Assembly (NCBI GenBank): GCA_035291665.1
Contig: DATDRP010000004.1
Location: forward strand, 22,272-86,271
Length of the DNA: 64,000 nt
Reading direction: 5' to 3'
Source: Patescibacteria group bacterium
GTDB lineage: Bacteria; Patescibacteriota; Microgenomatia; UBA8517
Positions 21,384 to 40,897 of the stretch are shown piece after piece (within the stretch, counting starts at the first letter, position 1; each line of letters begins with the position of its first letter). The notes below the pieces were generated by a model, which made no database searches, had not been told where the DNA came from, and saw only the letters and a list, made by a program, of their open reading frames with translations. Both the position numbers and the translations under genes were made by a program.

Positions 21384-22229
21384 TTAGGGGTAATTAATAT
21401 TAATCGGTTTATTTGGTTTTGATTTATCTTTTTTTCTGGCAATGATAAAGGCGATGACAAGAATTAGTAATACCAAAATCGATCCACCAATTATAACCAA
21501 TTTATTATTAGGATTGAAAATTCCGGAAGTTGAAGTGTAAACCCTTTCACCTGCGGGTTGGTTAGTGTCGGGGTTTGTTTTCGGATTCAAGGAGGGAAGA
21601 GGTCCTTCCGCATCGATTCCTTCTGTGAGAGACGTTTCATCAACCGAATCTGACCCACCCGTTGAATTCTCCGTGGGAGTAATGAGTAGTGTATCGTTTG
21701 CTTTCGGATCGGTGTTTTGGTATATGTATCCGGAAAAATTAGAAACCCTGCTTAGAATGTCACCTGTACCTTGGGAAACTGCTATGTTTGAATCAACAGT
21801 GCTTCCGGGTTCAAAATAAAACCAGACTTTTGCATTGCCTTCTTTGATTGCCTGGAATTTAATTTTAGCAAGTTCTCCCTTTCCGTTATAAGGTTTGTCG
21901 GGTGAATTAACAACACCGGATACGGTTACGGAACCTGTGTCATTATTGAAAAAAACCGAAGGGAAGTCATCGTAAATATCAGAAGCGTCAATTGCAACTA
22001 CTTTCAAAAGATTTGAATTAAAGAACAGTTTTGCACCCGCACCAAGTGAATTTTCACCATCGGTGTTTATCATTACTGAGATATCAATAACATCATATTT
22101 CTTAAGCGATGCCGATGCTGGATCCAAATAAAATTCCGGATTGGCAGCATGAATCTCACTAAAAGATAACAAAAATAGACTTACCAAAAAGACACTAAAT
22201 ATTTTTAAGTGAAGCACTTTTTTATTCAT
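21384..22229 (-). CDS. membrane-anchored protein with one cohesin-like domain (putative anchoring scaffoldin)
   Basis: Signal peptide, then a ~150-aa beta-sandwich-like segment whose pattern (...GAGAKLFFNSNLLKVVAID...SVFFNNDTGSVTVSGV...GKGELAKIKFQAIKEGNAKVWF) parallels cohesin signatures. A Thr/Ser/Pro/Asn-rich linker, a C-terminal TM helix and a KKDKSK stop-transfer follow. Confidence 0.55.
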   Translation of the reverse strand: MNKKVLHLKIFSVFLVSLFLLSFSEIHAANPEFYLDPASASLKKYDVIDISVMINTDGENSLGAGAKLFFNSNLLKVVAIDASDIYDDFPSVFFNNDTGSVTVSGVVNSPDKPYNGKGELAKIKFQAIKEGNAKVWFYFEPGSTVDSNIAVSQGTGDILSRVSNFSGYIYQNTDPKANDTLLITPTENSTGGSDSVDETSLTEGIDAEGPLPSLNPKTNPDTNQPAGERVYTSTSGIFNPNNKLVIIGGSILVLLILVIAFIIARKKDKSKPNKPININYP

Positions 22230-22253
22230 GTAAGAGATTTTACGAAGCTAAAG

Positions 22254-24500
22254 TTAGAGCTGATCCTTCAATAGATTCCAGTTATGTCTCATGATGACAT
22301 AATCAAGGTTATTAATACTTCCGCTTCGATCCAAGTCAACCAAGGACAGAGCTGTGCCGTAGTTGGGGAGCATATTAAGCGTGTAGTCGATCTCGTTTAT
22401 TTCACCGTCTCCATTAAAGTCTCCGCCCAGAAGTATCGGGTTTGAAAGATCAAGATACGAGTTTGTGGTTGATATTACAACAGGGTTTGTATCGCTTCCG
22501 TATTTTCTCGGGAGATATCCTGCAGTCTGAATCAGGAAAACATAATTACCTGTGGCGATTGATAGGATTGCTTCTCCTGCTGTATTTGTGGTTGCGGTTG
22601 TTTGAGTGATCGTTGTTGTATTGGGTTTACGATAAGAAACTGTGATGTTCGCACTGTTACTTACCCCGGTTCTCAACTTTCCCTGCATCTTGATTTTCAA
22701 AGTAACACTTGATGGAGAAGGAGTATTCGTAGCCGATACCGATGTCGGGGTAGCAGTAGGAGGTACATTTGTAGGTGTTGCGGTTGGTACAGATGTGGGT
22801 GGAACTGCAGTCGGACTGACTATGGCTCCGGGTTGAGAATATACTTCAAATTCTGCAAGCTGGAAGTAGTAATTATTATCAGAAGCATTTATTCTCAACT
22901 TTGTTGCATTAATCCTGACATATCTTGCAGTAACTTGCGTGAAGGAGAATGACTGGACGTTACTTGTCGGAAGCGCATAATTCGTAAGGTTTGCGACAGT
23001 TGTCCAAGTCGAATTATTTTGGGAAACCTGAACTGCAAAGTCGATCGGAAAGCCTTGTCCGACGTTTGAAACGTCATTTCTGGGATAAAGATTGACTTTT
23101 CCAACTGTATAGTTTGTTCCCAAATCAACGGTTATCCATTCAGTATGGGAGACACTCAAATTACTAAAACTACTCCATCCGAATGGTGCTGCGGATGAAC
23201 TTGTGTTTCCGTCAACTGCACCTGTTTTGAACCAACCCCAGTTTTCAATTGAGCTGGATGCCAGAACTGCTTTATTGAGTGCCAAATTCAAGTTTGATTG
23301 AATCGTCGGTGTGGCTGTTGGAATTTGTGTGGGAATAGCAGTTGGCTGTACGGTAGGTTGAACAGTCGGCGTTGCTGTCGGAGTTTGGCTGCCTGTTATT
23401 ATTACGGACGTCCCGTTGACGCTTGTCAGGATATCTACCGGATCTTGAGTATTCCATGTTCCGGTAAGAACCATATTCGAGTCATTTCTACCTCCCGGAG
23501 TAAAGTCGAATGTAATCTGAGATCCGGAACTAACTGCGACTCCTTTGAAAATGATATCCCCAACATGGATATTCGATCCGTTAACAGGAGTGGTTGAGGT
23601 GCCGGATCCGACATTAACTGAAATATACGCAGTTCCGGTCGTATTATTGAAAGTTAGTCTTGGGGTTGAGGTAAATCTTGGTTCATTTCCTTTTACAACA
23701 GTCACGGCTTGAAGTACTGCCGGATTGTAGTTTACTATCGCGTCAATACCGTCAACGTTTTGTCCGGCCGTATCTCCATAGATACTTACTGTAAATTGAG
23801 TGTTCAGCGTCTTTGTGCCAGGATTTGTAAGGAAAAGCCTTGCAGAACTTACTGGATTTACGGTGATATTGGCTGGAGTTGTCTGAACACCGAGCAAAAC
23901 TGATTGCATGTTATATACTTCTGTGGATTGAGACAGGCTTACTACGGCTGTTTGATTTGAGTTTGAAGTATTTTGATCGAATGTCAGCTTTGCGATGTTG
24001 GCTATGCCGGAGAGTGGTGGTGCCGGTTGAGGAGTCGGAGTACTATCGTTATATCCGATTGCGATTACCAACCTGAAGCTACCCGTTGTATTTGCCGAGG
24101 CCATTGAAGTTTTTTGAACGACTGTCCAATATTGGGGGATTACTTGGATTTCTTGAGTAAGTTTGACCATCGTAGGATCAAAATTTCCTTGCAAATCGAC
24201 AAATCCCACCTGTTCACCCTGAGTATTAATATTAAGATCGAGTGTTGTTGAAGGAGGGACGGATGCCGTAGAAGGACTCAAGTAAAGACTAACTGTTGTG
24301 ACAGCCGCCTTCAGCCTAAGTCTGATTTCTCTTTGGACTAAATAAACTCCCACAATTGCAGAGATTGTCAGAAAAATTACCAATCCAAGCTGCATTGGAT
24401 GAAGTTTTTTAAGTTTGGCAAGCAAAACTCGAAACGCTTTTTTTAAGTCGACTACATTTTTTAACATAAATAAAAAATATGTCTTTATTAACAACATCAT
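22254..24500 (-). CDS. scaffoldin-like protein: N-terminal TM anchor, two cohesin-like domains, F5/8-type-C (discoidin/CBM32-like) domain, divergent C-terminal dockerin-like module
   Basis: - Cohesin-like patterns: VGFVDLQGNFDPTMVKL...SGIANIAKLTFD and VDGIDAIVNYNPAVLQAVTV...GDIIFKGVAVSSGSQITFDF.
- Discoidin signature: ...WSSFS...EWITVDLGTNYTVGKVNLYPRND...
- C-terminus: GGDFNGDGEINEIDY...DLDRSGSINNLDYVIM, two Ca-loop-like segments. Confidence 0.6.
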   Translation of the reverse strand: MMLLIKTYFLFMLKNVVDLKKAFRVLLAKLKKLHPMQLGLVIFLTISAIVGVYLVQREIRLRLKAAVTTVSLYLSPSTASVPPSTTLDLNINTQGEQVGFVDLQGNFDPTMVKLTQEIQVIPQYWTVVQKTSMASANTTGSFRLVIAIGYNDSTPTPQPAPPLSGIANIAKLTFDQNTSNSNQTAVVSLSQSTEVYNMQSVLLGVQTTPANITVNPVSSARLFLTNPGTKTLNTQFTVSIYGDTAGQNVDGIDAIVNYNPAVLQAVTVVKGNEPRFTSTPRLTFNNTTGTAYISVNVGSGTSTTPVNGSNIHVGDIIFKGVAVSSGSQITFDFTPGGRNDSNMVLTGTWNTQDPVDILTSVNGTSVIITGSQTPTATPTVQPTVQPTAIPTQIPTATPTIQSNLNLALNKAVLASSSIENWGWFKTGAVDGNTSSSAAPFGWSSFSNLSVSHTEWITVDLGTNYTVGKVNLYPRNDVSNVGQGFPIDFAVQVSQNNSTWTTVANLTNYALPTSNVQSFSFTQVTARYVRINATKLRINASDNNYYFQLAEFEVYSQPGAIVSPTAVPPTSVPTATPTNVPPTATPTSVSATNTPSPSSVTLKIKMQGKLRTGVSNSANITVSYRKPNTTTITQTTATTNTAGEAILSIATGNYVFLIQTAGYLPRKYGSDTNPVVISTTNSYLDLSNPILLGGDFNGDGEINEIDYTLNMLPNYGTALSLVDLDRSGSINNLDYVIMRHNWNLLKDQL

Positions 24501-24532
24501 ATTCCTGTAATGTTGTCAATAGCCTTGTTAGA

Positions 24533-25858
24533 TTATAGACTATAATTCCCAAACCAAACAATATAATCAGCGCCATTTACGATCCCGTCTCTATTAAAAT
24601 CTCCGACAATATTTCCCGAAGTTGTGGGTTTTTGATAGTTTGTAAACCAAATTAAGTAATCGGCGCCGTTTGCCTTGCCGTCTCCATTTGCATCACCGGA
24701 ATTTGACCGAATCGAAGTCGGGTATACCGAAGGCAACTGATCGCTAGCTGGGACAACCACTTCTACATAATTTGACAATACAGATTCCGATCCGTTTATA
24801 TTAACAGCCGAAACGTTATAAATATATGTTTTACCCGATGTAACGCTTGTATCGGTATACGAAGTCTGATTTGCAGTAAAATCGGGGCCGTATCCGCCAT
24901 CGTCGCGCCCAATCCGATAATGGGAAATGTAGGGAGTAGTAGATGAATTCCAGGAAAGCGATACCGATTTTGATGTGATTCCCGTGACTTTCAAATTTGA
25001 AGGAGCACATACAGCGGTTCTTATTACGTTTGCAGACGAGGATACGTTACCGGAATTATCCTGGGCTGTTACTTCATAGCTGTAAGAACCACAAGACAAC
25101 GATTTATCAGTATATTGATAGCTTTCAGTAACTTGATCCATGATCGGAGTGAAGCTGTGAATTTTTGTACCGTTACGCCAAATAGAATAATTCGGAATAT
25201 CGCGATTATCTTTGGATGCAGTGCTTGTCAATTCAAAACTGTATTGCATATAATCTGAAGTGTTCTTAACGGTCAGATACGGCGCAGTCGGAGCAGTTTT
25301 GTCGACAATATTTATTATATTGTAATCAAAAGCTTCCCATTCCTCATTAAATCCAAGGTCGGGATTGAATGCATGGGCGACAACCAAATAATCTCTAACG
25401 GGATATAAATTGCTGTCGAAAGAACAGGTGAATGGAGCTGAGAAGTCAGTACACAGTTCCCAAACGTTTGGTTTATCATAATTTTCTTCCAGTCCGAATT
25501 TGACATATTTGACATCACCTGTAGTTGTGACAGTTATGTTTACCAATCCTTCAGCACTATAACCCTCTTGGGGTGAAGTGACTGTGATTGTGATCAGACC
25601 GAGTGGGGGTGTGGGAAGCGGTGTGACGGTAGGGGTGGGAACTCCGCAAGACCAAATGCAGGATGTATCGTTTGAACAAGATGAGTACTCAAAACTTGAA
25701 CAATAGGAAGGACCTGTACAACAGGAATACGCTTCGGATCTTTCGGCGGTTTTCGGATTTTGTGTAAAAAAGATGGCTATATATAAAGTGACGGATAAGA
25801 TCCCGACTGCGGAAATCTGAAGGAATAACGGTTTTTTTAATTTGTTAAGAAAATGCAT
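24533..25858 (-). CDS. secreted Ig-like/fibronectin-III repeat protein with C-terminal dockerin-like module
   Basis: N-terminal hydrophobic anchor or signal, a Cys-rich segment and Fn3-like repeats (SNLKVTGITSKSVSLSWN...). C-terminal GDANGDGKANGADYLIWFTNY...GDFNRDGIVNGADYIVWFGNY. Confidence 0.65.
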   Translation of the reverse strand: MHFLNKLKKPLFLQISAVGILSVTLYIAIFFTQNPKTAERSEAYSCCTGPSYCSSFEYSSCSNDTSCIWSCGVPTPTVTPLPTPPLGLITITVTSPQEGYSAEGLVNITVTTTGDVKYVKFGLEENYDKPNVWELCTDFSAPFTCSFDSNLYPVRDYLVVAHAFNPDLGFNEEWEAFDYNIINIVDKTAPTAPYLTVKNTSDYMQYSFELTSTASKDNRDIPNYSIWRNGTKIHSFTPIMDQVTESYQYTDKSLSCGSYSYEVTAQDNSGNVSSSANVIRTAVCAPSNLKVTGITSKSVSLSWNSSTTPYISHYRIGRDDGGYGPDFTANQTSYTDTSVTSGKTYIYNVSAVNINGSESVLSNYVEVVVPASDQLPSVYPTSIRSNSGDANGDGKANGADYLIWFTNYQKPTTSGNIVGDFNRDGIVNGADYIVWFGNYSL

Positions 25859-25957
25859 ACTCAGGTTATTTTAAGAATATGCTTAAAAGGAATTGATTGT
25901 CAAACAAAAATATTCAAAGAGGGTAAATGAATTTCGCTATTTATACGTATTTCAAGA

Positions 25958-26074
25958 ATACCCCATCTGAAGGCAATTGCCGAAGGATGGGGATGAATTG
26001 AATTAAGAATGTAACCTCGTTTAGACGGATCCGAAAGGATACCCCGCCTGAAAGCGACAGCGAGAGGGTGGGGA
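25958..26074. repeat. tandem duplicated hairpin element (2 x ~55 bp): taCCCCaTCtgaaggcaattgccgaaggaTGGGG / taCCCCgCCtgaaagcgacagcgagagGGTGGGG
   Basis: Two adjacent stem-loops with 7-bp G/C stems sit in the intergenic gap between two minus-strand dockerin genes. The spurious 60-aa ORF 25900..26082 shows the repeat as HPxAxAFRxGIL x2. Confidence 0.55.
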
Positions 26075-26103
26075 GGTTTCATATCAATGTATAAGAAAAT
26101 AGA

Positions 26104-28005
26104 TCACTTCCCGTAATTTCCGAACCAGATGATGTAATCAGCTCCGTTAACTATGGTATCTCTATTAAAATCTCCTGCTGATGGACCTTGGCTGGTTGTT
26201 TTTTTGTAGTTATTAAACCAGATCAAGTAATCGGCTCCGTTTACTTTTCCGTCGCCATTTGCATCCCCCGGTTTTGAAGTCGCCGTCGGGGTGGCTGTTG
26301 GAGTAACACTCGGTCCGCCGGTTGGCGGAGTAGGAGTAGATGAAGCCTGCGGTGTAGGCGAGGGTGGTATCGAACCGTTTACACTTATAGCTGTTGAAAA
26401 TTCACTTGCCAGTCCCGACCACTCAACCGATTTAACTTTAAACCAGGTATTTGATGTTGATCCTTGGTATCCGATACTGCCTGTATACAACCAGACAAAA
26501 GAGTCGTTCCAATGCTCGGCCGCGGTTGATCCCAGTACTCCTCGGACCAAGCCTGTAAACGAGGTGGGGGTCCTGCCGGTATAACTGACTAGTTCATTTG
26601 GTTTTTCGGATGACAGACCGGATATCTCCAGTGTACCTTGATCTGGAAAACCTGTTGTAGAATCTACATTAATTGAAGTTTGGTTATTTGTAATTTTGCT
26701 GGGAGCGTTCAGGTACGTTAACAATGAGGGGAGCAATGCAATCTGGTTATAAGTTCCCCCCTGGCTGGTGGAACCGTATATTTGATATTCCTTAATTTCC
26801 CGATGGTTAGGAGCGGGTTTAAAAGTGACTATTACATTACCGCCCGACGAAACCGCTTTCATATCAGAAGGTGCGGCGGGTTTCTTAAAAATAACATAGT
26901 AGAGATTTTTGTTTCCAGCTTGGCGAATATCTCCGCTAAATGCAATTTTAGTCGTATCGGGACTGAAGCTGGCGTTGACATAATCCCTGCCCGCATCACT
27001 CCCGTAATTTGCCACTCTTACCGGAGCCGATCCGGAAGTTGTGAGCGGTTGCGGAACACTGAAGACAAGAACGTGACCAACCTCGCCTCCAAGGTTAGCT
27101 CCCAGAACCATCCATTTAGCGTCAGGACTGAAGTTGGTGTGATCGCCATAAACTGCACCGTTTATCATAGTTAATTGTCTGGTTGCCGTATCTCGGGCAA
27201 AAAGAGTATTTGCATATTGAAAATCCGACCCATTCCCTCCGATCCAACCTTGACCTCCACCAATCATATAAGCAGAATCGGACAGGGTAGGATGGTCAAA
27301 AAGTCCTGCCCAGGTTTGGTTCCCTACATTAAGCTGGCCAAGAAATGTACCGGTATTAACATCAAAAACCATCGGTACATCTGTATATTGTTCCCATTGG
27401 CTATTATTAAGATACCAAGCGGCATTGTTACCCAGCCAGCCGTGGGTAACATCAAACCCACCTGACTGTCTGCCGGGGGAAACATAACCACGGCAATTTG
27501 TACCGTCAAGGTTAATGAACTTAACTGTACCTGTCCCGGAGCTGATATCGTTGGAGTTAGCAATACCTGAGAGTGTCCTTCCGTCGGGGCTAAGCATAGA
27601 AAAATAAAAAGGGAGGCAGGATGAGGCATTTGGAATTTGTGAAGATATGTTAGCGGCGATTTCTGTTTGGTAGAGATTTTCTTTTGAATAGTAGAACTTG
27701 CTGTCGTGGCTCCACCATCCCATCAGACCTTCCCCGACACCGCTGGAAGGGGCGCTTAAAGTGTGATTATTGTTTCCGTCAGTATTCATAACGTTATTAG
27801 GTCCGGTGATTATATATTGGCCATTAGGACTGAATGGGTTGGAAGTGTAATAAGAGGTAGGGTAGCTTGCAGAAGTATTAGTCATTCGCCATATTTCAAA
27901 GCCGGTTTCCGGATCGGTAAAGATTTCCTTGGGAGCTGCCTGAACAGGTGAGACAAAGATGGTAATAGTTAATATTGCGATAAAAACCTTAAACCAATGT
28001 GACAT
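26104..28005 (-). CDS. secreted beta-propeller (TolB/WD40-like) plus Fn3-like protein with C-terminal dockerin-like module
   Basis: Signal peptide, repeated propeller-blade-like segments, a Fn3-like domain, a TP-rich linker (TPTATPTATSKP) and GDANGDGKVNGADYLIWFNNY...GDFNRDTIVNGADYIIWFGNYGK. Confidence 0.65.
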   Translation of the reverse strand: MSHWFKVFIAILTITIFVSPVQAAPKEIFTDPETGFEIWRMTNTSASYPTSYYTSNPFSPNGQYIITGPNNVMNTDGNNNHTLSAPSSGVGEGLMGWWSHDSKFYYSKENLYQTEIAANISSQIPNASSCLPFYFSMLSPDGRTLSGIANSNDISSGTGTVKFINLDGTNCRGYVSPGRQSGGFDVTHGWLGNNAAWYLNNSQWEQYTDVPMVFDVNTGTFLGQLNVGNQTWAGLFDHPTLSDSAYMIGGGQGWIGGNGSDFQYANTLFARDTATRQLTMINGAVYGDHTNFSPDAKWMVLGANLGGEVGHVLVFSVPQPLTTSGSAPVRVANYGSDAGRDYVNASFSPDTTKIAFSGDIRQAGNKNLYYVIFKKPAAPSDMKAVSSGGNVIVTFKPAPNHREIKEYQIYGSTSQGGTYNQIALLPSLLTYLNAPSKITNNQTSINVDSTTGFPDQGTLEISGLSSEKPNELVSYTGRTPTSFTGLVRGVLGSTAAEHWNDSFVWLYTGSIGYQGSTSNTWFKVKSVEWSGLASEFSTAISVNGSIPPSPTPQASSTPTPPTGGPSVTPTATPTATSKPGDANGDGKVNGADYLIWFNNYKKTTSQGPSAGDFNRDTIVNGADYIIWFGNYGK

Positions 28006-28058
28006 GGAAGTAATTTAATAATCCATCAAAGTGAGGGTTGATGTCAATAAAATTCAAT

Positions 28059-30686
28059 TTATTTCCCGTAATTCCCGAACCAGATGATGTAATCAGCTCC
28101 GTTAACTATGGTATCTCCATTAAAATCTCCTGCTGATGGACCTTGGCTGGTTGATTTTTTATAGTTATTAAACCAGATCAAGTAATCGGCTCCGTTTACT
28201 TTTCCGTCGCCATTTGCATCCCCCGGTTTTGAAGTCGCCGTCGGGGTGGCTGTCGGTATGATCGTCGGTATGGGAGTAGATATTCCGGTTGGGAAGGCCG
28301 TTGGTATAGGTGTGGATGTTGGTACGGGACTTCCGGTGTGGACTGCTTTGATGGCAATATCTTTATTAAGACCGCTTACGGGTATGGACAATGTACCTCC
28401 AGACGAGATTACACTGGTTGTAACTGCACCGGTATAAGTATTCCAGTACTCAATATTATATGTTCCCGCCTGAAGGTTCGGGATAGAAACGGTCGGATTG
28501 ATCGTCCCTGGTGTACCGGTATTTGACCAAATATAATCCCGATGCTGTACCCAAAGATATGCCCGGTAGCGGTCTCCGCTCACCAGTGCAAAGGCGCGGG
28601 TTTTACCTCCGGTATCGTTTTGGACAGAAAGCGTAGTACCGGTGTATCCGGATGGGGTGTCGGCCGCAGTCATGACGGAGGTGAAATTACTGGTTGAAAA
28701 ACTGATATTCTGAAAGAAATTTTTCATTACAAGTTTTTCCTGATTTACTAAATTTGAATATGAGCTGTCGTTTTGATTGTCATACCAGAATATGGGAGTG
28801 GTAGCCATTGGTGAGAACAGTCCGGTCCAGGCTCCATTATGATGTGCCCGGTGGGCACCCTCTCCGGTGGTTCCCTGCGGATTTGGCTGGTTCCATTCCG
28901 TCGTTCCCACACCGATTTCACCCCAGACAAACGGGCGGGGAGCCGATCCGGGTGTCCAATCGGTGCTGTCGCCGATACCCAAACCGTCGCAGTAATATTT
29001 ACCATACTGTCGGCCGTAGAGACACCAGGCAAAACGATGCACGAAGTTGACTTCATCGTTAGTAAGAGCGGAAGAGTAGCGGCTGATCATCATATAATCA
29101 TGGTAATTGGTGAGGTTGAATGCAGGGGAGGACCAGAATGCCGGACTGAATGCCTGAGATCCCTGGGAAGTGGTGCGCATGTGCTGGTAAATATCGGTTT
29201 GCTTCTGATAATCAGCATACTGTTGGAAGAAATTAAATATTGATGTATTTGGAAGAACATGGCCAAGCTCATTATGGTTTTCCCAGGCAAGAATTGATGT
29301 TGCGTATCCCCACCGGGCCACACGGTAACGGAAATTCCGCTGCCAGCTTTTCAGTACCCACGGTTGCGACCAGTCCCAGGAATCAGGCGATTCAGGGTTA
29401 CCCGGCCAGGTAAACCAGGGACCCGAGCAGGAACAAAGCTGGATATAGACACTATTGGTTACTCCTGCGTCGATATACTGATCTTGCAGCCAGCATTCTT
29501 CCGGATTGAAGTAATTACCTAACGGACGGGGTAGCGTTGTATTCGAATTCGGATCGTTATTGACATTATCCTTGGCGAAATGCCGTTCCATATCACCGTC
29601 TGTTACTATCGAATAAAGGATGTTTCCCTGCGCGTCTACCGGTCCGAATTCAACATCATCAACATAACCACTACCTTGGAAGTAGACTACTAGATCCGAT
29701 GAAGGAGTATATGTGCGTTCTGAAAGGGTATAACTGGTGGAGTTGGCGTCGATCTGGGTGCCGGAGATTACGCTTCCCGGAAGCACCCCATTCAGTGACC
29801 TGAGGGATACGGTGACAGTGCCTTTGGTCCAGACTTTTAATTTATGGGAGCGGTTGGGTTCGGTGACAGCTAAACGTTGATACCAGGCTGTTCCGGGTTG
29901 AGCTGCCCTCATACCGGAATGGGTATTAGTATTGATTGTTACTCCGACGGCAGCCCCGTCTGTCGTGGAAGCATTAATCCAGGTTGTATGAGCGCCTTCG
30001 ACCCCCAGTGAAAAATCATTCTGGTCCCAAATCCGGATCAAATTAATTCCGTACTGCTTATCCTGAACAAATCTGCTTTCGTAGTTATCTCCCCAGGGAT
30101 ACCCGCGGGAAAGGGGGACATATGACGAGCCGTTGTCAAACACCATGTACCGGGGATCCTGTGGATTAGGCTTTATAAATCCCGGATTGGAATTGTCGGC
30201 TGTGATGCTGAAAGTTTGGGCAGAGGTTTGGGTCTTACCTTCTTTATCTTCAGCACTGACAGTATAAGAATAAGTTCCGACCTCCGACCAGGTGAACCGT
30301 CCTTTCCACACGGGAAGACCGGACTTACCCATAACATTTCTGCTTCCGACAATGTGCCGGGTGTAATCCTGGTAAAAGAATGCCGGAAGTACAAGCTGTT
30401 TACCGCTGGGTGTAGTGATGTTGATATTAACGGTTACTCCATCCACACCAAACCATGTCATACGCGACGGGTTTGCTGCCTGGGTGTCAGACGGATCGTA
30501 GAAATAATAAGGATTGGGGTACGTTTTGGATAGATTAAATGAGAATTCGATTTTCTGATATTTTTTAACCGATGCTGACGAAGGAGAAACCGTAACAGGT
30601 CCGGTAACCTGCGGGGCGGCTGCCTTTACCGGTACAGAAGAAATAGCAAGAAATAAAAAAATTAGAATAGCTTTTTTATATAGCAT
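28059..30686 (-). CDS. secreted putative glycoside hydrolase (N-terminal beta-sandwich plus TIM-barrel-like domain) with C-terminal dockerin-like module
   Basis: Signal peptide. An internal segment LAWENHNELGH is reminiscent of a clan GH-A catalytic NE motif, but the family is unassigned. The C-terminal linker and dockerin are nearly identical to those of the 26104 gene. Confidence 0.55.
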   Translation of the reverse strand: MLYKKAILIFLFLAISSVPVKAAAPQVTGPVTVSPSSASVKKYQKIEFSFNLSKTYPNPYYFYDPSDTQAANPSRMTWFGVDGVTVNINITTPSGKQLVLPAFFYQDYTRHIVGSRNVMGKSGLPVWKGRFTWSEVGTYSYTVSAEDKEGKTQTSAQTFSITADNSNPGFIKPNPQDPRYMVFDNGSSYVPLSRGYPWGDNYESRFVQDKQYGINLIRIWDQNDFSLGVEGAHTTWINASTTDGAAVGVTINTNTHSGMRAAQPGTAWYQRLAVTEPNRSHKLKVWTKGTVTVSLRSLNGVLPGSVISGTQIDANSTSYTLSERTYTPSSDLVVYFQGSGYVDDVEFGPVDAQGNILYSIVTDGDMERHFAKDNVNNDPNSNTTLPRPLGNYFNPEECWLQDQYIDAGVTNSVYIQLCSCSGPWFTWPGNPESPDSWDWSQPWVLKSWQRNFRYRVARWGYATSILAWENHNELGHVLPNTSIFNFFQQYADYQKQTDIYQHMRTTSQGSQAFSPAFWSSPAFNLTNYHDYMMISRYSSALTNDEVNFVHRFAWCLYGRQYGKYYCDGLGIGDSTDWTPGSAPRPFVWGEIGVGTTEWNQPNPQGTTGEGAHRAHHNGAWTGLFSPMATTPIFWYDNQNDSSYSNLVNQEKLVMKNFFQNISFSTSNFTSVMTAADTPSGYTGTTLSVQNDTGGKTRAFALVSGDRYRAYLWVQHRDYIWSNTGTPGTINPTVSIPNLQAGTYNIEYWNTYTGAVTTSVISSGGTLSIPVSGLNKDIAIKAVHTGSPVPTSTPIPTAFPTGISTPIPTIIPTATPTATSKPGDANGDGKVNGADYLIWFNNYKKSTSQGPSAGDFNGDTIVNGADYIIWFGNYGK

Positions 30687-30696
30687 TTATTTTGAT

Positions 30697-33342
30697 TTAT
30701 TTTATAGTAATTTGACTCGGATCGGTGGCGAATATCACCGGATCACCTTGGAAAAATTCCACTTTACCTTCAACCCAAATTGATTGGTGAAGCTGGTAGT
30801 CTTTTTCTATATTTGGGAAGTTGCTTAATTGTTCAACCGGGATTAAAACCTGTAACAACTGACTGTGAGGCTCATCGCAACTAAGGTAATAGTAACGGCT
30901 GCTTTTATGAATATATTTTATTTCGCAAGATGTTTTTATGTTTTGGAATTCGTATCCGATTGCGTAAAAGTAGGCAATAGATTGTGGTGGTCCTGATTCG
31001 ATATCAGCACCCAGCTGAATATTGGAAATCCCTGCAACCTCCGGAGATGATATTGTATTTGTATCAGCTTGAGTTCCTACATCTTTCAGAACAAAAATGG
31101 TGTTATTTATACTTTTGACTATAATATATTTTCCGCTTACCAGAACATATGGATTGATTGTCCAACCCCGCCCGTCAGCGTAAAATCCGTCGGGATAGCT
31201 ACGGTTACCACCTTCTGCACAGAGGTTAGTACACCAATGTGTAGTAGTGTTACAATTGCCGCACTGCTCCGCTGAAACGAATGGAGTATAAGAACCATTA
31301 ATAGGGTTTGTAAAAGTGGCACCGCGACTGTCACTTCTGTCAGTGATTTTCAGCCCTTCCAGTACAGCCAACCAGTGTGAGTGAAAAACCATATCACTGG
31401 AACCGGAAACCATACCCTGTTCATCCGTTTGGATATCAATAAACTTAACAAATCGAGCATCACCTCCGGTATATCCGGTGACAGTAGAATTATCCAAGAC
31501 CATTTCACCCATGGTGGCATCCTCACGGTAATCACACCAACCGCTGGCACAGGTTTGACCATTGCTATAGATTATGTACGCCACCTGCTTACCATTAGAA
31601 AGAGTACGGACAGCTGGTTGGGGACCGGAATAAAGCCAACCATTACCAAAAGCTCCAAATTTAATGGCTGGGGTAAACATTCGGGCACCTGTGTCCAAAC
31701 TCAAAGCGAAGAGGGTTTGATAATTAGGATTCGCATCAAGGGTTTGTTTAATACCGGCGTTTGTGGTCGGCATGGGAGAAGCAAAATACATTGCATTGTA
31801 ACCATGGCGCATTCGCATGAGTACAATTCCTGTATTGTCAGCGATGACAGGCCAGTTATGTCGGAATTCGTAACAGGCGCTACCTTCTCCGTCCGAGCCA
31901 CAATACCAATTGTTTGTTGTTGGTTTTACATTCCATCGGAGGGTACTACTACTATTGTTGATCGCTCTGACTCGTAAATCCGGATCAGTTGCATAAACAA
32001 TCACATCATACCGGGCGGAATATGAAGGCATGGTAACTTGATTAATACCTGAACCGGGGTTATACGGCCACCCGCCACCCGGAGAACTAAGGTTCGCTGT
32101 AGAAAGTTTATGTAATTTTCCATCATTGGCGGTAAAATAAACATAGTTTCCAGCAATTAACGGGGAAGTGGTTAAACTTGCTCCGGCATTAAAACTATTG
32201 AGCGTTGTACCGTTTGATCCGTTTAATTTGTATAATGTATTTCCAGATGCAACAAAAACTGCATCTGTACCCGAATCATATGCTGCCGAACTGTTAAGAC
32301 CTCCAAGACTTTTTGTCCAAATATTTGATCCATTGGTAAGATTCAGTGCGTACAAAGTTCCGTTTCCAGCCGGTACATATACTCGATTATTTCCGACAGT
32401 CGGGTAGACTTGATACTCAGAAACGGAATCTACATCGCTTCTCATCCATTGGTAAGCCCAACTATTTGAAAGGTCAACGGTATTCCATCCGGTTCTCTGA
32501 GCGTTAAAAGCGTGTTGGCTCCATTCGGTGGTGGGATTACTTGGCATCAGAGTCGGGGTTGGACCACTTGGTGTGGGGGTTGGCTGTTGGACTGTCGGAG
32601 TCGGAGGGACAGGTGTATTGGTTGCATTGGGAACAGGCGTATTTGTCGGATTGGGTGTGGGATTGGGTCCTGATGTATTTATGGTAATTCTATCAATGTC
32701 GGGTGCATACCCTGTATTATTAAGGAACCTTATAGTGTTATTTCCGGATGCAAGACTTACCGATATAGCTTTTGATGCAACTGTTGTCCAGCTTCCTGAA
32801 TTGGCGAATGAGTACAAAGCTGCAGCACTGCCGTTTATGCTTATTGACACATCCCGGTTGGGATCGCCGCTAATATAATATACAGTCATCGTGTAGGCAG
32901 CTTGTGAAAGAGAACTAATATTATTAAATTGAAGGTAATTCCCCGAACCTCCACCTATCCAGCCTACAATTTGTCCGCCTGAACATGTTGTACAGCTTCT
33001 TGCAGCAACAGCTCCCGCAAATGTATTTGAAGTTGATTCCGCTTCATATGAGGCAGTTCCTCCACCTATCGGAGTTGGAGTGGGGCCAACCTTACCGTAA
33101 TTATTAAACCAGATGAGGTAATCGGCTCCGTTCACTATGGTGTCACCATTAAAATCACCGGCTGATGCTCCCTGACTGGTTGACTTTTTATAATTGTTAA
33201 ACCAGACAATATAGTCGGCTCCATTTACTTTCCCGTCACCATTAGCATCTCCGGGAAGCGGTGATTGAGCTGCAGCATAATTGGAGCATGTTAAAAATAT
33301 TAAGGAAAATACCAATACAATCTTAAAATAAAGATTTCTCAT
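30697..33342 (-). CDS. secreted PQQ-like beta-propeller protein with N-terminal dockerin-like module
   Basis: Signal peptide, then PGDANGDGKVNGADYIVWFNNYKK...GDFNGDTIVNGADYLIWFNNYGK, a TP linker, PQQ-like repeats (YALNLTNGSNIWT...) and a Cys-rich C-terminal domain (WCDYREDATMGEMVLD). Confidence 0.7.
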   Translation of the reverse strand: MRNLYFKIVLVFSLIFLTCSNYAAAQSPLPGDANGDGKVNGADYIVWFNNYKKSTSQGASAGDFNGDTIVNGADYLIWFNNYGKVGPTPTPIGGGTASYEAESTSNTFAGAVAARSCTTCSGGQIVGWIGGGSGNYLQFNNISSLSQAAYTMTVYYISGDPNRDVSISINGSAAALYSFANSGSWTTVASKAISVSLASGNNTIRFLNNTGYAPDIDRITINTSGPNPTPNPTNTPVPNATNTPVPPTPTVQQPTPTPSGPTPTLMPSNPTTEWSQHAFNAQRTGWNTVDLSNSWAYQWMRSDVDSVSEYQVYPTVGNNRVYVPAGNGTLYALNLTNGSNIWTKSLGGLNSSAAYDSGTDAVFVASGNTLYKLNGSNGTTLNSFNAGASLTTSPLIAGNYVYFTANDGKLHKLSTANLSSPGGGWPYNPGSGINQVTMPSYSARYDVIVYATDPDLRVRAINNSSSTLRWNVKPTTNNWYCGSDGEGSACYEFRHNWPVIADNTGIVLMRMRHGYNAMYFASPMPTTNAGIKQTLDANPNYQTLFALSLDTGARMFTPAIKFGAFGNGWLYSGPQPAVRTLSNGKQVAYIIYSNGQTCASGWCDYREDATMGEMVLDNSTVTGYTGGDARFVKFIDIQTDEQGMVSGSSDMVFHSHWLAVLEGLKITDRSDSRGATFTNPINGSYTPFVSAEQCGNCNTTTHWCTNLCAEGGNRSYPDGFYADGRGWTINPYVLVSGKYIIVKSINNTIFVLKDVGTQADTNTISSPEVAGISNIQLGADIESGPPQSIAYFYAIGYEFQNIKTSCEIKYIHKSSRYYYLSCDEPHSQLLQVLIPVEQLSNFPNIEKDYQLHQSIWVEGKVEFFQGDPVIFATDPSQITIK

Positions 33343-33466
33343 ACTATGTACGGAAGTTTAATATACTTCTTAAGTCTATCTTACGAAGAATTTAATTATC
33401 AAGGACTAATTTGTAATTGGCCACAGAAGCCTGATATAAGAGTATATAAATAGTATTGGAAAGTTA
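33343..33466 (-). promoter_or_regulatory. conserved intergenic promoter region upstream of the 30697..33342 gene (duplicate of 37169..37291)
   Basis: The ~120-bp intergenic sequence is about 90% identical to the region upstream of the paralogous PQQ gene. On the minus strand it contains TTGATA...TATATT-like elements. Confidence 0.35.
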
Positions 33467-34699
33467 TTATTTGTTGTAGTTACTAAACCATACAATATAG
33501 TCAGCTCCGTTAACTATGGTATCTCTATTAAAATCTCCTGCTGATGGACCTTGACTGGTTGATTTTTTATAATTTGCAAACCAGATCAAATAATCCGCTC
33601 CGTTAACTTTCCCGTCACCATTTGCATCTCCGGGTTTGGAAGTCGCCGTTGGGGTGGCTGTCGGTATGATTGTCGGTGTGGGAGTAGGAGTATTGATAAC
33701 TCCGGATGTCGGAGTCGGGGAGGGGGGGCGCACTGTTGGTGTGGGAGACGGATTAACAGAAATTCCCGCGTTGGTCAGAATTTCCGTATCAGAAAAGAGT
33801 GTAAACGTTTGTGCGTATTTGCTGTTCATTGGTTCCATGAAGAGCTTATTTGAAAGCATGCCGTTAAGAACCGTACCCATATGACTGTCACTCATTACAG
33901 CGTTGTGAGGTTCATTATTGAATGAAGTAAGGCTTATTGTTTCGCCGGCAATCGTAAAACTGGTTCCGGCAAGTTGTGTACTTGCCCATTTATTAAAATC
34001 AAATAACGCGAGATTCCGTTGGGAAGCAATTGTTGCTATTCCCTGATTGACTGTATTAATAGCCTGGGTGGCACGTTGGCGTCCGGTTGCATTTGGGTAA
34101 AGCGATTGGATAAGCAAAAACTGCCCGGGATCACCGATGTTGGCAATTATTATTGGTATGTTTTTGGTGTTCAGGATTGTATCAACAGCGGTAGTAATAT
34201 TTGCAAGAATTCCGTTTATTTTTGATTGAATTTGGGCATCAGTCATTGTGCCGTTGTAAATTGGATCGTACGTGGCAACAGCAGGGTTAGGACTGAAATC
34301 ATTTGTTCCGATCCAAATTACTGCATGGGTAACCAATCCTTGTTGTACTTGTGAAGCCAAACCTGTATGTTGTCCCGAAGTAATCATGGATGACGCGTTA
34401 GCGGCAGTTCTTGCCCAATTGTATGCATACCCGCACCGTCTTGGTTCCGAACGGCATCCCCAAGCTCCCGCATTAACACCCCGGTATTTCACCAAAAGCT
34501 CTAACCAATTATAAGTTGTTGCACTATAGCTTCCACCCCGGTTATCATCAGCCCTGTATTCATCGGTATTGCTATCACCCAATATACCCAGCCCGGTAAT
34601 CGGCGCCCCTAATACTTTACCTGTAAAAAAGAGCTGGAAAATGAGTACCAGTAAGAAAATTTTAATTTTTGAGTTTTTCAATTTCAATTTAAGGTTCAT
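33467..34699 (-). CDS. secreted SGNH/GDSL-family hydrolase (esterase/lipase-like) with C-terminal dockerin-like module
   Basis: Signal peptide, a GDSNTD block-I motif (ILGDSNTDEY) and WIGTNDF. C-terminal TPTPT linker and dockerin. Confidence 0.7.
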   Translation of the reverse strand: MNLKLKLKNSKIKIFLLVLIFQLFFTGKVLGAPITGLGILGDSNTDEYRADDNRGGSYSATTYNWLELLVKYRGVNAGAWGCRSEPRRCGYAYNWARTAANASSMITSGQHTGLASQVQQGLVTHAVIWIGTNDFSPNPAVATYDPIYNGTMTDAQIQSKINGILANITTAVDTILNTKNIPIIIANIGDPGQFLLIQSLYPNATGRQRATQAINTVNQGIATIASQRNLALFDFNKWASTQLAGTSFTIAGETISLTSFNNEPHNAVMSDSHMGTVLNGMLSNKLFMEPMNSKYAQTFTLFSDTEILTNAGISVNPSPTPTVRPPSPTPTSGVINTPTPTPTIIPTATPTATSKPGDANGDGKVNGADYLIWFANYKKSTSQGPSAGDFNRDTIVNGADYIVWFSNYNK

Positions 34700-34855
34700 A
34701 TAATTTTCCGCTTAGTAATTTCTTGGTTATTGCTATTATTTATATTACCCTGTTATGGAATATTTTTAAACTGTCTTTAAAAAACCCTTCCTGGGCGGTG
34801 AGTATTTCATAAGTAAAGAGAGCGGCCTTTGAAAACCATAGATATTAAAGTTGGA

Positions 34856-37168
34856 TCATTCGACTATTTCTAACTGCCTTGGATCAGTCAGTATGATTTC
34901 CGGGTCAACGTTTTCGGGCCAATAAAGAGTTATTTTACCTGTTACCTGGACATTTTTACCCTTTAACGTCATTGGATCAAAAGTAAATTTTGACAGGTCT
35001 TGTGCAAAAATCCGAAGCAACAAATATCCGTCATGCGGATCAGTAAATCCAAGGTAAATCGCTTTCGGTAGATTATCTTTCGCTGAAACGATGCGTCCGG
35101 TTATGGTTACAACTTTATTAATATAGTTATCTGCTTCGTCATAAGTTATAACCGGGATTCCAGAATCGCTATTTTGTACTCCCAGGACTGTTTGATCTGA
35201 ACCAGTATCTGTTATCAGATTTTCGCTATCGGCATTTGCTGTTGGGCTGCCGTTTTCAAAAACCATTAAAGCGCCGTCGTTGGTTTTAAGAAGAACCTGA
35301 TTTGCGGATACGATTGTATACGGGCTAGAACCCCCATTTCTGTCGTTCATATACTCGTAAAAACCCGGAGGGTATGATCTTGTATCGCCATATGAATAAA
35401 GACCTTGCGAACAATATCTTGATGATGATAACGTGCAGCTGCTTTGACATACGGGAGGATTCGAGCAGCCCGGGTAATCGCAAGGAGACGTACAGCCGGC
35501 AACCCCGCCGGGACAGGTACATTGTCTCCAGATAACAAACGGTACATTTTCACTTGCAATTGGATTTGTAAATGTTAAACCCAAGTTTGAACTTCTATTC
35601 GTGATTCTAGCTGCAGCGTTAATCAACCAATGTCCATGAAAAATAATATCTTTAGACATCGTCAAATTCATCATCTCGTCGGTTTGGGTGTCCTGATATT
35701 TGATAAACCGTACATCTCCTGCCTGGTAACCGGAAACGGAGCTCGCATCCAAAACCATTTCACCCATTGTTGCATCCTCCCGGCCGTCGCACCATTGTCC
35801 GCTCGGCGGCGGGCAATTGCCGGGCGTAGAACAGCCTCCGCAGGTTAAAGCATTCCGCCAGATGATATAAACTACTTCTTTCCCGTCGCTCGTGATTGCA
35901 ACTACCGGCTTCGGGCCTAGCGATAAACTGCCTCCATCACCCGAGCCTCCGTTGCCAACTGCAGGCGGTACGTACGATGTTGCATCGCTCCAGCTTGTTG
36001 TTTTGCCTGAAACTGGCCATGCCGGAAGCCCGCTATCCAGATTTATGGCAAATAATGCTTGATCACCGGGTTTACCCTGAAGGTAACTTTTAATCTCACT
36101 ATTAGTATTGGGAAACATCTTATCCGTCCAAGTTGTCCATGGCAAGCGATACCGGACAAAGACTATGCCGTGGTTTTCAGCCACCACAGGCCAACTGTTG
36201 TTAAATTCTATTGATCCGGCAGAGTAAGTATTGATGGTAGGTTTAACTTTCCAAACCTGCGCCCCTGTTACTGCATTCACAGCATGTACATACAAATCCT
36301 GTGAATTGGCAATCAACAAATTCCGAGATGTTGAATAAGCTGGAGCGGTTACCAAAGTGTTGCCGGAATTATATGACCATACTTGCGTCATGTTGTCGGT
36401 ATTTACGGAAATTAAATTGGTAACAGCGGATAAATAAATTCTGTTATTAACAAGAAGGGGAGCGTAATTCAAAGCCTTCCCTGAGTTGAAAGTTCCGGTG
36501 ATTGCCCCGGTCGAGGCGTTGATTTTGTATAAATTGCCATTTGTTGAGGCAACATAAAGAAGCTCATTATTATAAACCGGCGAGGAATTCAGAGCTCCAA
36601 GTGCTGTATTCGACCACATAACGTTTCCGTTCGTTTTGTTCAAAGCATAAACTCCACCTTCTGAAACCATATAAATTCTACTTCCGCCGGTTATCGGTTG
36701 GACCAATCCCGGGACGCTCAAATGTCCTGTCTGAGTTTTTGCATCACTACCAGACCCGTTCCATTGCCAAATATGTTTCCAAGGTAAAGCTACAGTTTGG
36801 GTGGTAAAATTTGTCCTTTGTACGTCGTGTCCGAATTGAGTCCACTCACTTATTGTTGCCGGAACCGGAGTAGGTGTTGGTCCGGATGGTGTTGGAGTGG
36901 GCGAGATCCGTCCGTAATTATTAAACCAGATGAGGTAATCGGCTCCGTTTACCATGGTATCCCCATTAAAATCACCGGCTAGTGCGCCCTGACTAGTCGA
37001 CTTTTTATAGTTATTAAACCAGACCAAATAATCAGCTCCGTTTACTTTCCCGTCACCATTTGCATCTCCGGGTAGGGAAGATTGAGCTAATGCATAATTG
37101 GAACACGAAAGTAATAGTATTGAGGATATCAGTATCGTTTTAAGATGTAGATTACTAATCTTTTTCAT
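34856..37168 (-). CDS. secreted PQQ-like beta-propeller protein with N-terminal dockerin-like module (paralog of 30697..33342)
   Basis: Same architecture as its paralog, and they share WCDGREDATMGEMVLD and N-terminal dockerin sequences. Confidence 0.7.
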   Translation of the reverse strand: MKKISNLHLKTILISSILLLSCSNYALAQSSLPGDANGDGKVNGADYLVWFNNYKKSTSQGALAGDFNGDTMVNGADYLIWFNNYGRISPTPTPSGPTPTPVPATISEWTQFGHDVQRTNFTTQTVALPWKHIWQWNGSGSDAKTQTGHLSVPGLVQPITGGSRIYMVSEGGVYALNKTNGNVMWSNTALGALNSSPVYNNELLYVASTNGNLYKINASTGAITGTFNSGKALNYAPLLVNNRIYLSAVTNLISVNTDNMTQVWSYNSGNTLVTAPAYSTSRNLLIANSQDLYVHAVNAVTGAQVWKVKPTINTYSAGSIEFNNSWPVVAENHGIVFVRYRLPWTTWTDKMFPNTNSEIKSYLQGKPGDQALFAINLDSGLPAWPVSGKTTSWSDATSYVPPAVGNGGSGDGGSLSLGPKPVVAITSDGKEVVYIIWRNALTCGGCSTPGNCPPPSGQWCDGREDATMGEMVLDASSVSGYQAGDVRFIKYQDTQTDEMMNLTMSKDIIFHGHWLINAAARITNRSSNLGLTFTNPIASENVPFVIWRQCTCPGGVAGCTSPCDYPGCSNPPVCQSSCTLSSSRYCSQGLYSYGDTRSYPPGFYEYMNDRNGGSSPYTIVSANQVLLKTNDGALMVFENGSPTANADSENLITDTGSDQTVLGVQNSDSGIPVITYDEADNYINKVVTITGRIVSAKDNLPKAIYLGFTDPHDGYLLLRIFAQDLSKFTFDPMTLKGKNVQVTGKITLYWPENVDPEIILTDPRQLEIVE

Positions 37169-37291
37169 ACTATATACGGAAGTTTTGTATAATTGTTAAG
37201 TCTATCTTACGAAGAATTTGATTATCAAGGACTAATTTGAGTTTAGCCACCAGCAAACGATATACATATATATAGTAGTATGGTAAAGGTA
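37169..37291 (-). promoter_or_regulatory. conserved intergenic promoter region upstream of the 34856..37168 gene (duplicate of 33343..33466)
   Basis: See the 33343..33466 entry. Confidence 0.35.
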
Positions 37292-39649: not shown

Positions 39650-39733
39650 AATAAAGCCTTATATCATTTTGTTGCGGTTGAACATTGAAGTCAAGTGGTG
39701 TCAATGTTGTTTATCTCGAATATTAACAAAAAC

Positions 39734-40897
39734 TTACTTTCCGTAATTACCAAACCAAACTAAATAGTCTCCACCATTAACAAATCCATCCTCGTTAAAG
39801 TCTCCTGCTAATGCTCCCTGGCTGGTTGATTTTTTATAGTTATTAAACCAGACCAAATAATCCGCTCCGTTTACTTTCCCGTCGCCATTAGCATCCCCCG
39901 GTTTTACAGCAATTATCGGGGTAGCTGTTGGAGTAAGACTGGGTCCGCCGGTTGGGGGAGTAGAAGCACCGGGGATTGAACTTGCAATCCAAACAGATCC
40001 TTGCCGAAGATCGCCGGTTATACCGTTACCACTAGCGTCATTCAAAATATATCCCGTCCCATTACCCTCATCCAGGTGATATAAAAGTAGTGTATTTATA
40101 TCATTAATGTATGGATTTGAGGGAGGAGTAAAACTTCCCTGATACCGTAAATTATTTGAGATCCTCAGTTCATCAAAATAACCGTTGTATGATGGATATT
40201 GACTTCCTGCATCATGTTTTTCAGCAGCAATGACAAGGTATGGGTCGCTCTCATTACAACTCGGTCCGGTTGAAAGATTAGTACAGCAGGTTGAACAGGG
40301 GACTGCGTTATCGGGATAAGATATTACTCCGTCAGGTCCGTCTGCTTCTGCCCTGACAATCCCGTCAACAAAGATCCACATATATCCATCCGATATTCGT
40401 CTCTCAATGGCAACATGGTGCCAAATGTCGTCAAGTACGGTATTACCACCGCAGATTGTGCGGTTTCCCGTACCGTTACCGCTGACGCCGAAAACCAATT
40501 TTCCGCCGGCAATTGATAAGCCGAATTTTCTGTCCTGGTTAAATCGGTCGCGGTCGATGACAATATTTCCGAATATCCAGTTGTCATTTGTTCCGCATGC
40601 GACGGATGAAGATGTATTATCAGCGCTTTTTGCTCTCATCCAAAATTCCAATGTAAAATCAGTATCTCCGATATCAGCAGCAGTACTTTCTGAATTTTGA
40701 CCATTAATTGGAATTTTAATCCGATCGAGCTGATTTGTGCCGGTTCCGTTAAACTTGAGAGCCGATCCAAAATCTGCGTAAGCTTTATTAAAGTTTGATA
40801 TTAAAAGAAAGAAAGCCGTAAGAAAAATAGTTAATAATCTCAACTGAAGGCTAATTGTAATTTTGTTTTTGAAGCGCTTTGTTAACATGATGTTCAA
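39734..40897 (-). CDS. secreted LamG/concanavalin-A-like lectin domain protein with C-terminal dockerin-like module
   Basis: Signal peptide. LamG-like pattern (LEFWMRAKS...DDIWHHVAIER...FDELRISN). C-terminal linker and dockerin (GDANGDGKVNGADYLVWFNNY...GDFNEDGFVNGGDYLVWFGNYGK). Confidence 0.7.
   Translation of the reverse strand: MNIMLTKRFKNKITISLQLRLLTIFLTAFFLLISNFNKAYADFGSALKFNGTGTNQLDRIKIPINGQNSESTAADIGDTDFTLEFWMRAKSADNTSSSVACGTNDNWIFGNIVIDRDRFNQDRKFGLSIAGGKLVFGVSGNGTGNRTICGGNTVLDDIWHHVAIERRISDGYMWIFVDGIVRAEADGPDGVISYPDNAVPCSTCCTNLSTGPSCNESDPYLVIAAEKHDAGSQYPSYNGYFDELRISNNLRYQGSFTPPSNPYINDINTLLLYHLDEGNGTGYILNDASGNGITGDLRQGSVWIASSIPGASTPPTGGPSLTPTATPIIAVKPGDANGDGKVNGADYLVWFNNYKKSTSQGALAGDFNEDGFVNGGDYLVWFGNYGK

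Follow-up and report, generated by a model that had tools for sequence, protein, structure and literature searches.

How did two neighbouring genes with unrelated bodies come to end in almost the same DNA? The question is raised by a stretch of 64,000 nucleotides (nt) of contig DATDRP010000004.1 (assembly GCA_035291665.1, positions 22,272 to 86,271), which we call the window and number from its first letter. The two genes, g26104 and g28059, belong to a run of ten minus-strand genes between 21.4 and 40.9 kilobases of the window (Table 1). The bacterium is uncultured and known from a metagenome genome (Patescibacteria, Microgenomates-like). Its cohesin-dockerin gene cluster, to which the region belongs, encodes a cohesin with a membrane anchor, a scaffoldin-like protein and eight secreted proteins; the bodies of these eight are unrelated, and each of the eight carries one copy of a single dockerin family. 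The near-identity of the g26104 and g28059 tails most probably goes back to one fairly recent, short (~180-192 base pairs, bp) and non-reciprocal homologous exchange, i.e. gene conversion, in which the g28059 copy overwrote an older g26104 cassette, with the uniformity of the dockerin family being maintained mainly by purifying selection.

A near-identical tract at the 3′ ends of g26104 and g28059

Self-BLASTN of the window aligned positions 26108-26301 with 28063-28256 at 97.4 % identity over 194 nt (E 9e-90), and megablast returned the same pair over 191 nt with four mismatches, whereas the other dockerin pairs are 70-88 % identical. Using an ungapped comparison anchored at the two stop codons, we bounded the tract to ~192 nt, from 26298 (ACAGCCACC...) to 26107. 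It begins abruptly at 26298/28253 within the Pro/Thr linker and ends at the last sense codon; upstream of 26299 and beyond the stop codon the similarity is at chance level. A first-pass annotation of the window had described near-identical 3′ linker-dockerin cassettes of ~210 nt in these genes. The near-identity was confirmed by the alignment and the length turned out to be an overestimate. The same annotation considered the upstream parts of the genes unrelated, in agreement with the best BLASTP hit between the two bodies (E 0.17), and the self-alignment that it proposed shows the cassettes as near-identical and the bodies without similarity.

The tract encodes the linker end TATPTATSKP (linker DNA ACAGCCACCCCGACGGCGACTTCAAAACCG) and the 54-residue dockerin. 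The two copies share no exact run longer than 92 nt. Five differences are located inside the tract, at 26206, 26199, 26163, 26119 and 26107, and the stop codons also differ (TGA in g26104, TAA in g28059). As proteins, the two dockerins show S/T and G/R differences. Two of the five fall in the last ~15 nt (26107-26120), with one more difference in the stop codon. These ~15 nt may represent old flanking or anchoring homology that was not converted, and the conversion perhaps ended near 26120.

Silent sites separate this pair from all other dockerin pairs

Nei-Gojobori estimates for the g26104 and g28059 dockerins gave a proportion of synonymous differences (pS) of 0.09, with synonymous (dS) and nonsynonymous (dN) distances of 0.097 and 0.016. 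The 27 other dockerin pairs of the window displayed pS values of 0.42-0.88 and dS values from 0.62 to saturation (several pairs are saturated), with the proportion of nonsynonymous differences (pN) at 0.05-0.21 and dN at 0.05-0.25. Identity at third codon positions is 94 % for g26104/g28059 against 41-72 % for all other dockerin pairs of the window, and the other dockerins of the cluster share 66-92 % of their residues. Taking the least diverged of the other pairs (pS 0.43) as the reference, the binomial probability of three or fewer synonymous differences in 33 sites is 2.3e-5.

The same was seen in relatives, where all 22 within-genome dockerin pairs that we sampled from related Microgenomates genomes had pS of at least 0.47. 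Low silent divergence is thus found in one of the 50 within-genome pairs, g26104/g28059, the remaining 49 having pS of about 0.42-0.43 or more. The two genes therefore share a discrete segment in which silent-site identity lies far above that of comparable paralogue pairs, the pattern by which gene conversion is recognised.

A mosaic linker points to g26104 as the recipient

We counted linker and dockerin matches among the five closely related C-terminal cassettes; the sixth, g24533, was too divergent to be used. Upstream of the tract, the linker of g26104 matches the linkers of g37292 and g39734 at 36 of 41 positions and that of g28059 at 16 of 32. From 26298 on, g26104 is the same as g28059 at 28/28 linker positions and 157/162 dockerin positions. 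The upstream linker of g28059 continues to match g33467 (27/32), and BLASTN aligned 28059-28279 with 33467-33687 at 86.9 % identity over 221 nt. The phylogenetic signal is hence incongruent: the upstream linker joins g26104 to g37292/g39734 and the tract joins it to g28059/g33467. A run test on the polymorphic sites, confined to linker and dockerin since a version including the unalignable flanks is biased, found 27 concordant sites (P ~0.001). The first-pass annotation had also reported that linker segments recur in g37292 and g39734, and the 30-mer it quoted is indeed exact in both (37488-37517 and 39930-39959) and has three mismatches at 26300-26329 in g26104, with zero occurrences expected by chance.

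As g28059 is contiguous with its own subfamily and g26104 is chimeric, g26104 is the likely recipient, and the transfer probably went from g28059 to g26104. We infer both this direction and the recombination mechanism from the pattern of identity. The starting state would have been a g26104 gene whose linker and dockerin were like those of g37292/g39734. The g28059 copy would then have overwritten this cassette, beginning halfway through the PT linker and stopping where the dockerin ends, between direct repeats 1955 bp apart, and three to five substitutions would have accumulated after the exchange.

Homologues of the g26104 body were searched for in protein and metagenome data. The closest ones, P0002 (70 % identity), P0003 (50 %) and P0004 (47 %), all have C-terminal dockerins, and P0007-P0011 and P0013 also end in dockerins, while P0005, P0006, P0012 and P0014 have none. 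The dockerins of these homologues differ strongly from those of the window. For the two contigs with a readable neighbour (P0002 and P0003), the dockerin of the homologue resembles that of its own neighbour instead, at a nucleotide identity of 84 % in contig L003 and 63 % in L004. Dockerins on the homologues, together with the relic linker in g26104, make it more likely that an existing module was replaced than that one was acquired de novo. In L003, a contig of JGI 3300056874, the dockerins of adjacent genes (at ~360-430 and ~2360-2430) share a stretch of ~65 nt with one mismatch, which may be a similar partial exchange, independent of that in the window.

Alternative explanations

The pair could in principle come from the assembly, with a collapsed repeat or a chimeric path giving one gene the tail of the other. 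The ENA contig, which reads through both copies, does not differ from the window. A JGI contig (L002, 3300025325) agrees with it at 14453 of 14454 nt, covering all of g28059 and the tract edge, and ends at window position 26233, inside the tract and 64 nt past the mismatch. The repeat explains why this public assembly breaks inside g26104. The stop within the tract could be taken as a sign of an artefact, and so could the position of the sole mismatch between the assemblies (26297), one base inside the tract edge. It changes ACA to ATA (Thr to Ile), is also present in protein P0001, and could reflect either variation between strains at this edge or an error at the end of the contig. However, the two copies retain their five differences, the ENA contig spans both of them, the JGI contig gives independent confirmation of both g28059 and the breakpoint in g26104, and an identical g28059 protein occurs on six contigs. 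The ENA contig name (k141_) suggests an assembler k-mer of 141, and the longest exact run is shorter than this. After the comparison of the two public assemblies we judge an artefact to be very improbable. Even less credible is purifying selection or codon bias alone, with both copies old and constrained in protein and codons. The strong protein conservation of the family (34 of 54 alignment columns invariant among the eight dockerins) would fit, but pairs with ~91 % protein identity (g28059 against the N-terminal dockerin of g30697 or against g33467) reach only 81-85 % at the nucleotide level and 56-69 % at third positions, the weakly constrained linker is identical at 28/28 positions, and the breakpoint is abrupt. 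The silent-site statistics effectively refute selection as the sole cause, and we rejected it.

Recombination can be read in two further ways. In one, frequent conversion among all cassettes continuously homogenises the dockerins and keeps them matched to one cohesin specificity, as the first-pass annotation proposed. Its call of recent conversion or modular recombination is borne out for this pair by the silent sites, the sharp edges and the mosaic linker, but its idea that the dockerins stay matched through homogenisation does not agree with the pS of 0.42-0.88 in the other pairs. Concerted evolution would account for the dockerins being more alike within genomes than between them (mean nucleotide identity 0.76 vs 0.62), with genome-specific signatures, in a comparison that drew on the window, L003 and nine GTDB loci, eleven sources of Microgenomates type that were assigned to nine genomes. 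It would also account for the several mosaic tracts in the cluster, and for the homologue dockerin in L003 being closer to its own neighbour's (84 %) than to the window's. Yet under frequent homogenisation silent sites should stay similar, and they do not in the 27 other pairs of the window, where pN is only 0.05-0.21, nor in the 22 pairs of the relatives. The copy in g24533, which adjoins g26104, is the most divergent one (~70 % nucleotide identity), and coevolution with the cohesin under purifying selection predicts genome-specific signatures equally well. We therefore consider continuous homogenisation unlikely. Since the silent sites have diverged widely while the protein is conserved, it is mainly purifying selection that holds the protein similarity, plausibly via the shared cohesin, and conversion is episodic, perhaps no more than a by-product of similarity and proximity. 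The other way is cassette shuffling, in which a g26104 gene without a dockerin recently gained the linker and dockerin of g28059 by duplication and insertion. The sharp edges, the identity that stops exactly at the stop codon, the four body homologues without dockerin and the occurrence of dockerins at either terminus in the cluster, which shows that the module is mobile, all suit such a gain. It is at odds with the linker of the g37292/g39734 type (36/41) that abuts the tract in g26104 and implies an earlier linker-dockerin there, and with the dockerins on all three closest body homologues, and we regard it as somewhat more doubtful still than continuous homogenisation.

Several points weigh against our preferred explanation, a single conversion of g26104 by g28059. 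The tract runs to the very end of the homology at the stop codon, which a classical conversion with two ends does not readily produce, unless an old anchor makes up the last ~15 nt. A one-step illegitimate or template-switch replacement and a RecA-type conversion are indistinguishable from the sequence alone, and the continuity of the flanks is the only pointer to the direction. Moreover, one pair in 50 says little about a general mechanism. The pre-conversion allele of g26104 was not found, and the exact g26104-specific linker 34-mer is absent from the metagenome contigs searched. A protein-based metagenome scan recovered only relatives with at most 50 % identity on short contigs. In the protein database, no entry falls between 100 % and 70 % identity to g26104, and the 70 % homologue has saturated silent sites. 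In the GTDB representative genomes, scanned with the dockerin alignment, the species of the window is not represented.

The dockerin family and its cargo

The 54-residue dockerin common to the eight proteins (GDANGDGKVNGADYLIWFNNYKK...GDFNGDTIVNGADYIIWFGNYGK) consists of two duplicated segments of ~22 residues, each an EF-hand-like Ca-binding loop followed by a helix (GDANGDGKVNGADYLIWFNNYK and GDFNGDTIVNGADYIIWFGNYG), which are present in all eight copies. Against PF00404 of Pfam, g26104 scored 27.3 bits and g28059 26.9 bits; the gathering cutoff of 22.9 is reached by all eight, by g33467 exactly. The dockerin is C-terminal in six of the eight genes; in g30697 and g34856, the PQQ-propeller paralogues, it is N-terminal and follows directly on the signal peptide. 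Within each dockerin, the two internal segments have 56-79 % nucleotide identity, and a check for homogenisation between them showed nothing notable.

Table 1. Features of the cohesin-dockerin cluster and of the exchanged tract, in window coordinates.
Feature	Position	Strand	Description
g21384	21384..22229	(-)	candidate partner; signal peptide, cohesin-fold domain, linker, C-terminal transmembrane helix
g22254	22254..24500	(-)	scaffoldin-like; cohesin-homologous module (~residues 228-370), F5/8 type C domain, divergent C-terminal dockerin (22287-22424)
g24533	dockerin 24536..24697	(-)	fn3/Big_13 protein; most divergent of the eight dockerins, 65-71 % nucleotide identity to the others
g26104	26104..28005	(-)	signal peptide, PD40/Tricorn_N-like beta-propeller body, PT linker, C-terminal dockerin
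Linker end (TATPTATSKP) and 54-codon dockerin of g26104	26107..26298	(-)	probable recipient copy
Upstream linker of g26104 (PPTGGPSVTP)	26299..26339	(-)	mosaic breakpoint; read as relic of the previous cassette type
g28059	28059..30686	(-)	signal peptide, DUF5060-containing body, PT linker, C-terminal dockerin
Same linker end and dockerin, 3′ end of g28059	28062..28253	(-)	probable donor copy; direct repeat, 1955 bp from the other copy
g30697	N-terminal dockerin 33091..33252	(-)	CBM6/35 and PQQ-like propeller
g33467	dockerin 33470..33631	(-)	GDSL esterase/lipase; PTATPTATSKP linker; 84-85 % nucleotide identity to the g26104/g28059 dockerins
g34856	N-terminal dockerin 36908..37069	(-)	PQQ-like propeller
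g37292	linker and dockerin 37295..37517	(-)	no domain found in body; 30-mer (37488-37517) same as in g39734
g39734	linker and dockerin 39737..39959	(-)	Laminin_G_3 / ConA-like lectin; 30-mer at 39930-39959
Junction repeat copy 1	33071..33637	(-)	g33467 C-terminal dockerin, stop, 124-nt intergenic, g30697 signal peptide and N-terminal dockerin
Junction repeat copy 2	36888..37462	(-)	g37292 C-terminal dockerin, intergenic, g34856 signal peptide and N-terminal dockerin

Pfam, PDB and NCBIfam, searched directly with the cargo bodies, returned little. The g26104 body had a weak, threshold-level match to PD40 in Pfam, and PD40/Tricorn_N is found in its homologues. For the g28059 body there were matches to DUF5060 proteins (PDB 9gmj, E 6e-20). 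The labels TolB-like (g26104) and GH-like (g28059) in the first-pass annotation would have their basis in these PD40 and DUF5060 matches. No glycoside hydrolase (GH) family was found by Pfam and NCBIfam on any of the eight cargo proteins, the recovered domains being only CBM6/35, GDSL, Laminin_G_3, PQQ/PD40 propellers, fn3 and DUF5060. The paralogues g30697 (30697-33342) and g34856 (34856-37168), both on the minus strand, share a C-terminal domain with a faint OB-fold (tRNA_anti-codon) Pfam match in both.

The G+C content of the dockerin cluster (window 22000-40900) is 42-48 % against 36-39 % in the surrounding housekeeping genes. This excess lies mostly at codon position 2 and reflects secreted proteins rich in Pro, Thr, Gly and Ala. 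At third codon positions, the G+C fraction of g28059 is 0.48 against ~0.35 in the flanks, which could hint at a foreign origin.

Among the GTDB genomes, the nearest dockerins have 57-69 % protein identity and come mainly from Microgenomates (Ca. Amesbacteria, Chisholmbacteria, Gottesmanbacteria and Woesebacteria), plus one metagenome-assembled genome (MAG) labelled Gammaproteobacteria. The GDANGDGK...NGADY-type signature is found elsewhere as well (L005, L013-L034): Planctomycetota MAGs (Phycisphaerales, Pirellulales) contain many copies of it, and some MAGs with the label Gammaproteobacteria have it too; the dockerin subtype is therefore widespread outside Firmicutes.

Probable traces of older exchanges in the cluster

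Two other places in the cluster carry weaker traces of older, similar exchanges. The first is a repeat of ~570 nt that crosses a gene boundary, the two copies of which (junction repeats in Table 1) are 81 % identical over 578 nt. The propeller bodies downstream of it have 32 % protein identity, and the upstream bodies (the undefined one of g37292 and the GDSL esterase) are unrelated. A promoter-like site, TTGATA-18-TAGACT, is kept in both copies. The second is a linker run of 33 nt, found by inspection of the alignment, which is identical between g37292 (37485-37517) and g39734 (39927-39959) and contains the 30-mer that is exact in both. The dockerins beside it are only 78 % identical, and the run is probably a separate short exchange limited to the linker.

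The cohesin partner and the scaffoldin-like protein

The product of g21384 had no direct match in Pfam. It is identical to an NCBI entry named 'cohesin domain-containing protein [Patescibacteria group bacterium]', and its homologues carry PF00963. The AlphaFold2 (AF2) model shows a beta-sandwich core with a predicted local distance difference test score (pLDDT) of ~80-90 and a C-terminal transmembrane helix. Only cohesins were present among the 50 PDB matches listed for this model, the best being 1g1k_A (E 9.5e-10, template-modelling (TM) score 0.72, range 0.72-0.75). With the predicted structure, the fold search settles g21384 as a membrane-anchored cohesin.

The module of g22254 was recognised by comparison with the g21384 cohesin profile (hhalign probability 97.3 %), while another candidate cohesin module, the one positioned first in the protein, displayed weak similarity (probability 11 %). 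The dockerin of g22254 (GDFNGDGEINEIDY...LDRSGSINNLDY) has other residues at positions invariant in the other eight and, with 21.8, scores just under the PF00404 cutoff of 22.9. These sequences suggest a two-tier hierarchy, in which the cargo dockerins would bind the cohesin of the scaffoldin and the scaffoldin dockerin would bind the anchor cohesin. The dockerin genes are located together with those of the cohesin-fold proteins, and we infer that the dockerins bind these neighbouring cohesins. The system would work like a cohesin-dockerin assembly but, as no GH family is present on the cargo, it is not to be filed as a cellulosome.

Comparison with known systems

The dockerins resemble the type I dockerins of clostridia (Acetivibrio thermocellus and Ruminiclostridium cellulolyticum; PDB 1ohz, 2vn5 and 1g1k) in their two segments of ~22 residues, the DxNxDxxxNxxD loops and PF00404 scores above the cutoff. 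The near symmetry of the two segments is like that in dockerins with a dual binding mode. As in clostridial cellulosomes, the linkers are rich in Pro and Thr, secreted proteins of varied body mostly carry the dockerin at the C terminus, and a cohesin-fold partner is encoded nearby. In contrast to them, the host is not a cellulolytic Firmicute but a member of the Patescibacteria (Microgenomates-like), and the anchor is a C-terminal transmembrane helix instead of SLH or sortase. The cargo also differs, with beta-propellers, a GDSL esterase, a lectin-like domain and a DUF5060 protein but no recognised cellulase or GH family detected. The helix motif NGADY(L/I)(I/V)WF is unusual, and two dockerins are N-terminal.

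A cohesin-dockerin system is already known in Patescibacteria. For the Microgenomates Ca. Shapirobacterales BG1-G2, cohesin and dockerin genes have been reported, expressed ones among them (PMC9123182). In a cultivated Patescibacteria strain, one of the envelope proteins found to be essential has a dockerin domain (PMC10633639). These systems belong to the same superphylum and have cohesin- and dockerin-domain genes as well, but the reports stay at the level of annotation and contain neither a clustered family of eight dockerin genes nor a cassette exchange at nucleotide level. Domain shuffling has been described in cellulosomal enzymes, e.g. in Ruminococcus flavefaciens FD-1 (PMC2721979), where the same dockerin type is likewise joined to catalytic modules of varied kinds. 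This modular plasticity is common to both systems; in FD-1, however, shuffling was inferred from architectures, and here we deal with a specific recent exchange with nucleotide breakpoints. Our literature search found no paper documenting gene conversion or concerted evolution of dockerins.

Gene conversion and concerted evolution among paralogous repeats in bacterial genomes are established as a general phenomenon. The case described here shares with it the discrete tract, the silent-site identity, the mosaic flank, the proximity of the segments on the same strand and a donor that seems unchanged. It differs in that only a domain module of ~190 bp is involved, in otherwise non-homologous genes, and in that the tract extends up to the stop codon, where the homology has its limit.

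Significance of the exchange

The exchange of a cassette is a standard process in a known kind of system, and it leaves the understanding of gene conversion and of dockerins unchanged. What the locus provides is a nucleotide-resolved case, with breakpoints and a probable direction, of the exchange of a docking module between unrelated genes, which is usually inferred from architectures only. It also calls for caution, as conversion can mislead dockerin-based phylogenies or orthology calls in such clusters. The compact cohesin-dockerin cluster of a member of the Patescibacteria, with cargo that is not obviously cellulolytic, bears on the role of these modules in episymbiotic ultrasmall bacteria. 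As a speculation, to which we give little credence, the cluster could encode a cohesin-dockerin assembly on the surface of an ultrasmall cell, dedicated and non-cellulolytic, in which an anchored cohesin and an adaptor scaffoldin display lectin, propeller and esterase cargo, perhaps for attachment to a host or to glycans, with recurrent cassette exchange re-equipping or re-tuning the cargo. If this were true, the exchange between g28059 and g26104 would be part of a recurrent process and not a one-off accident.

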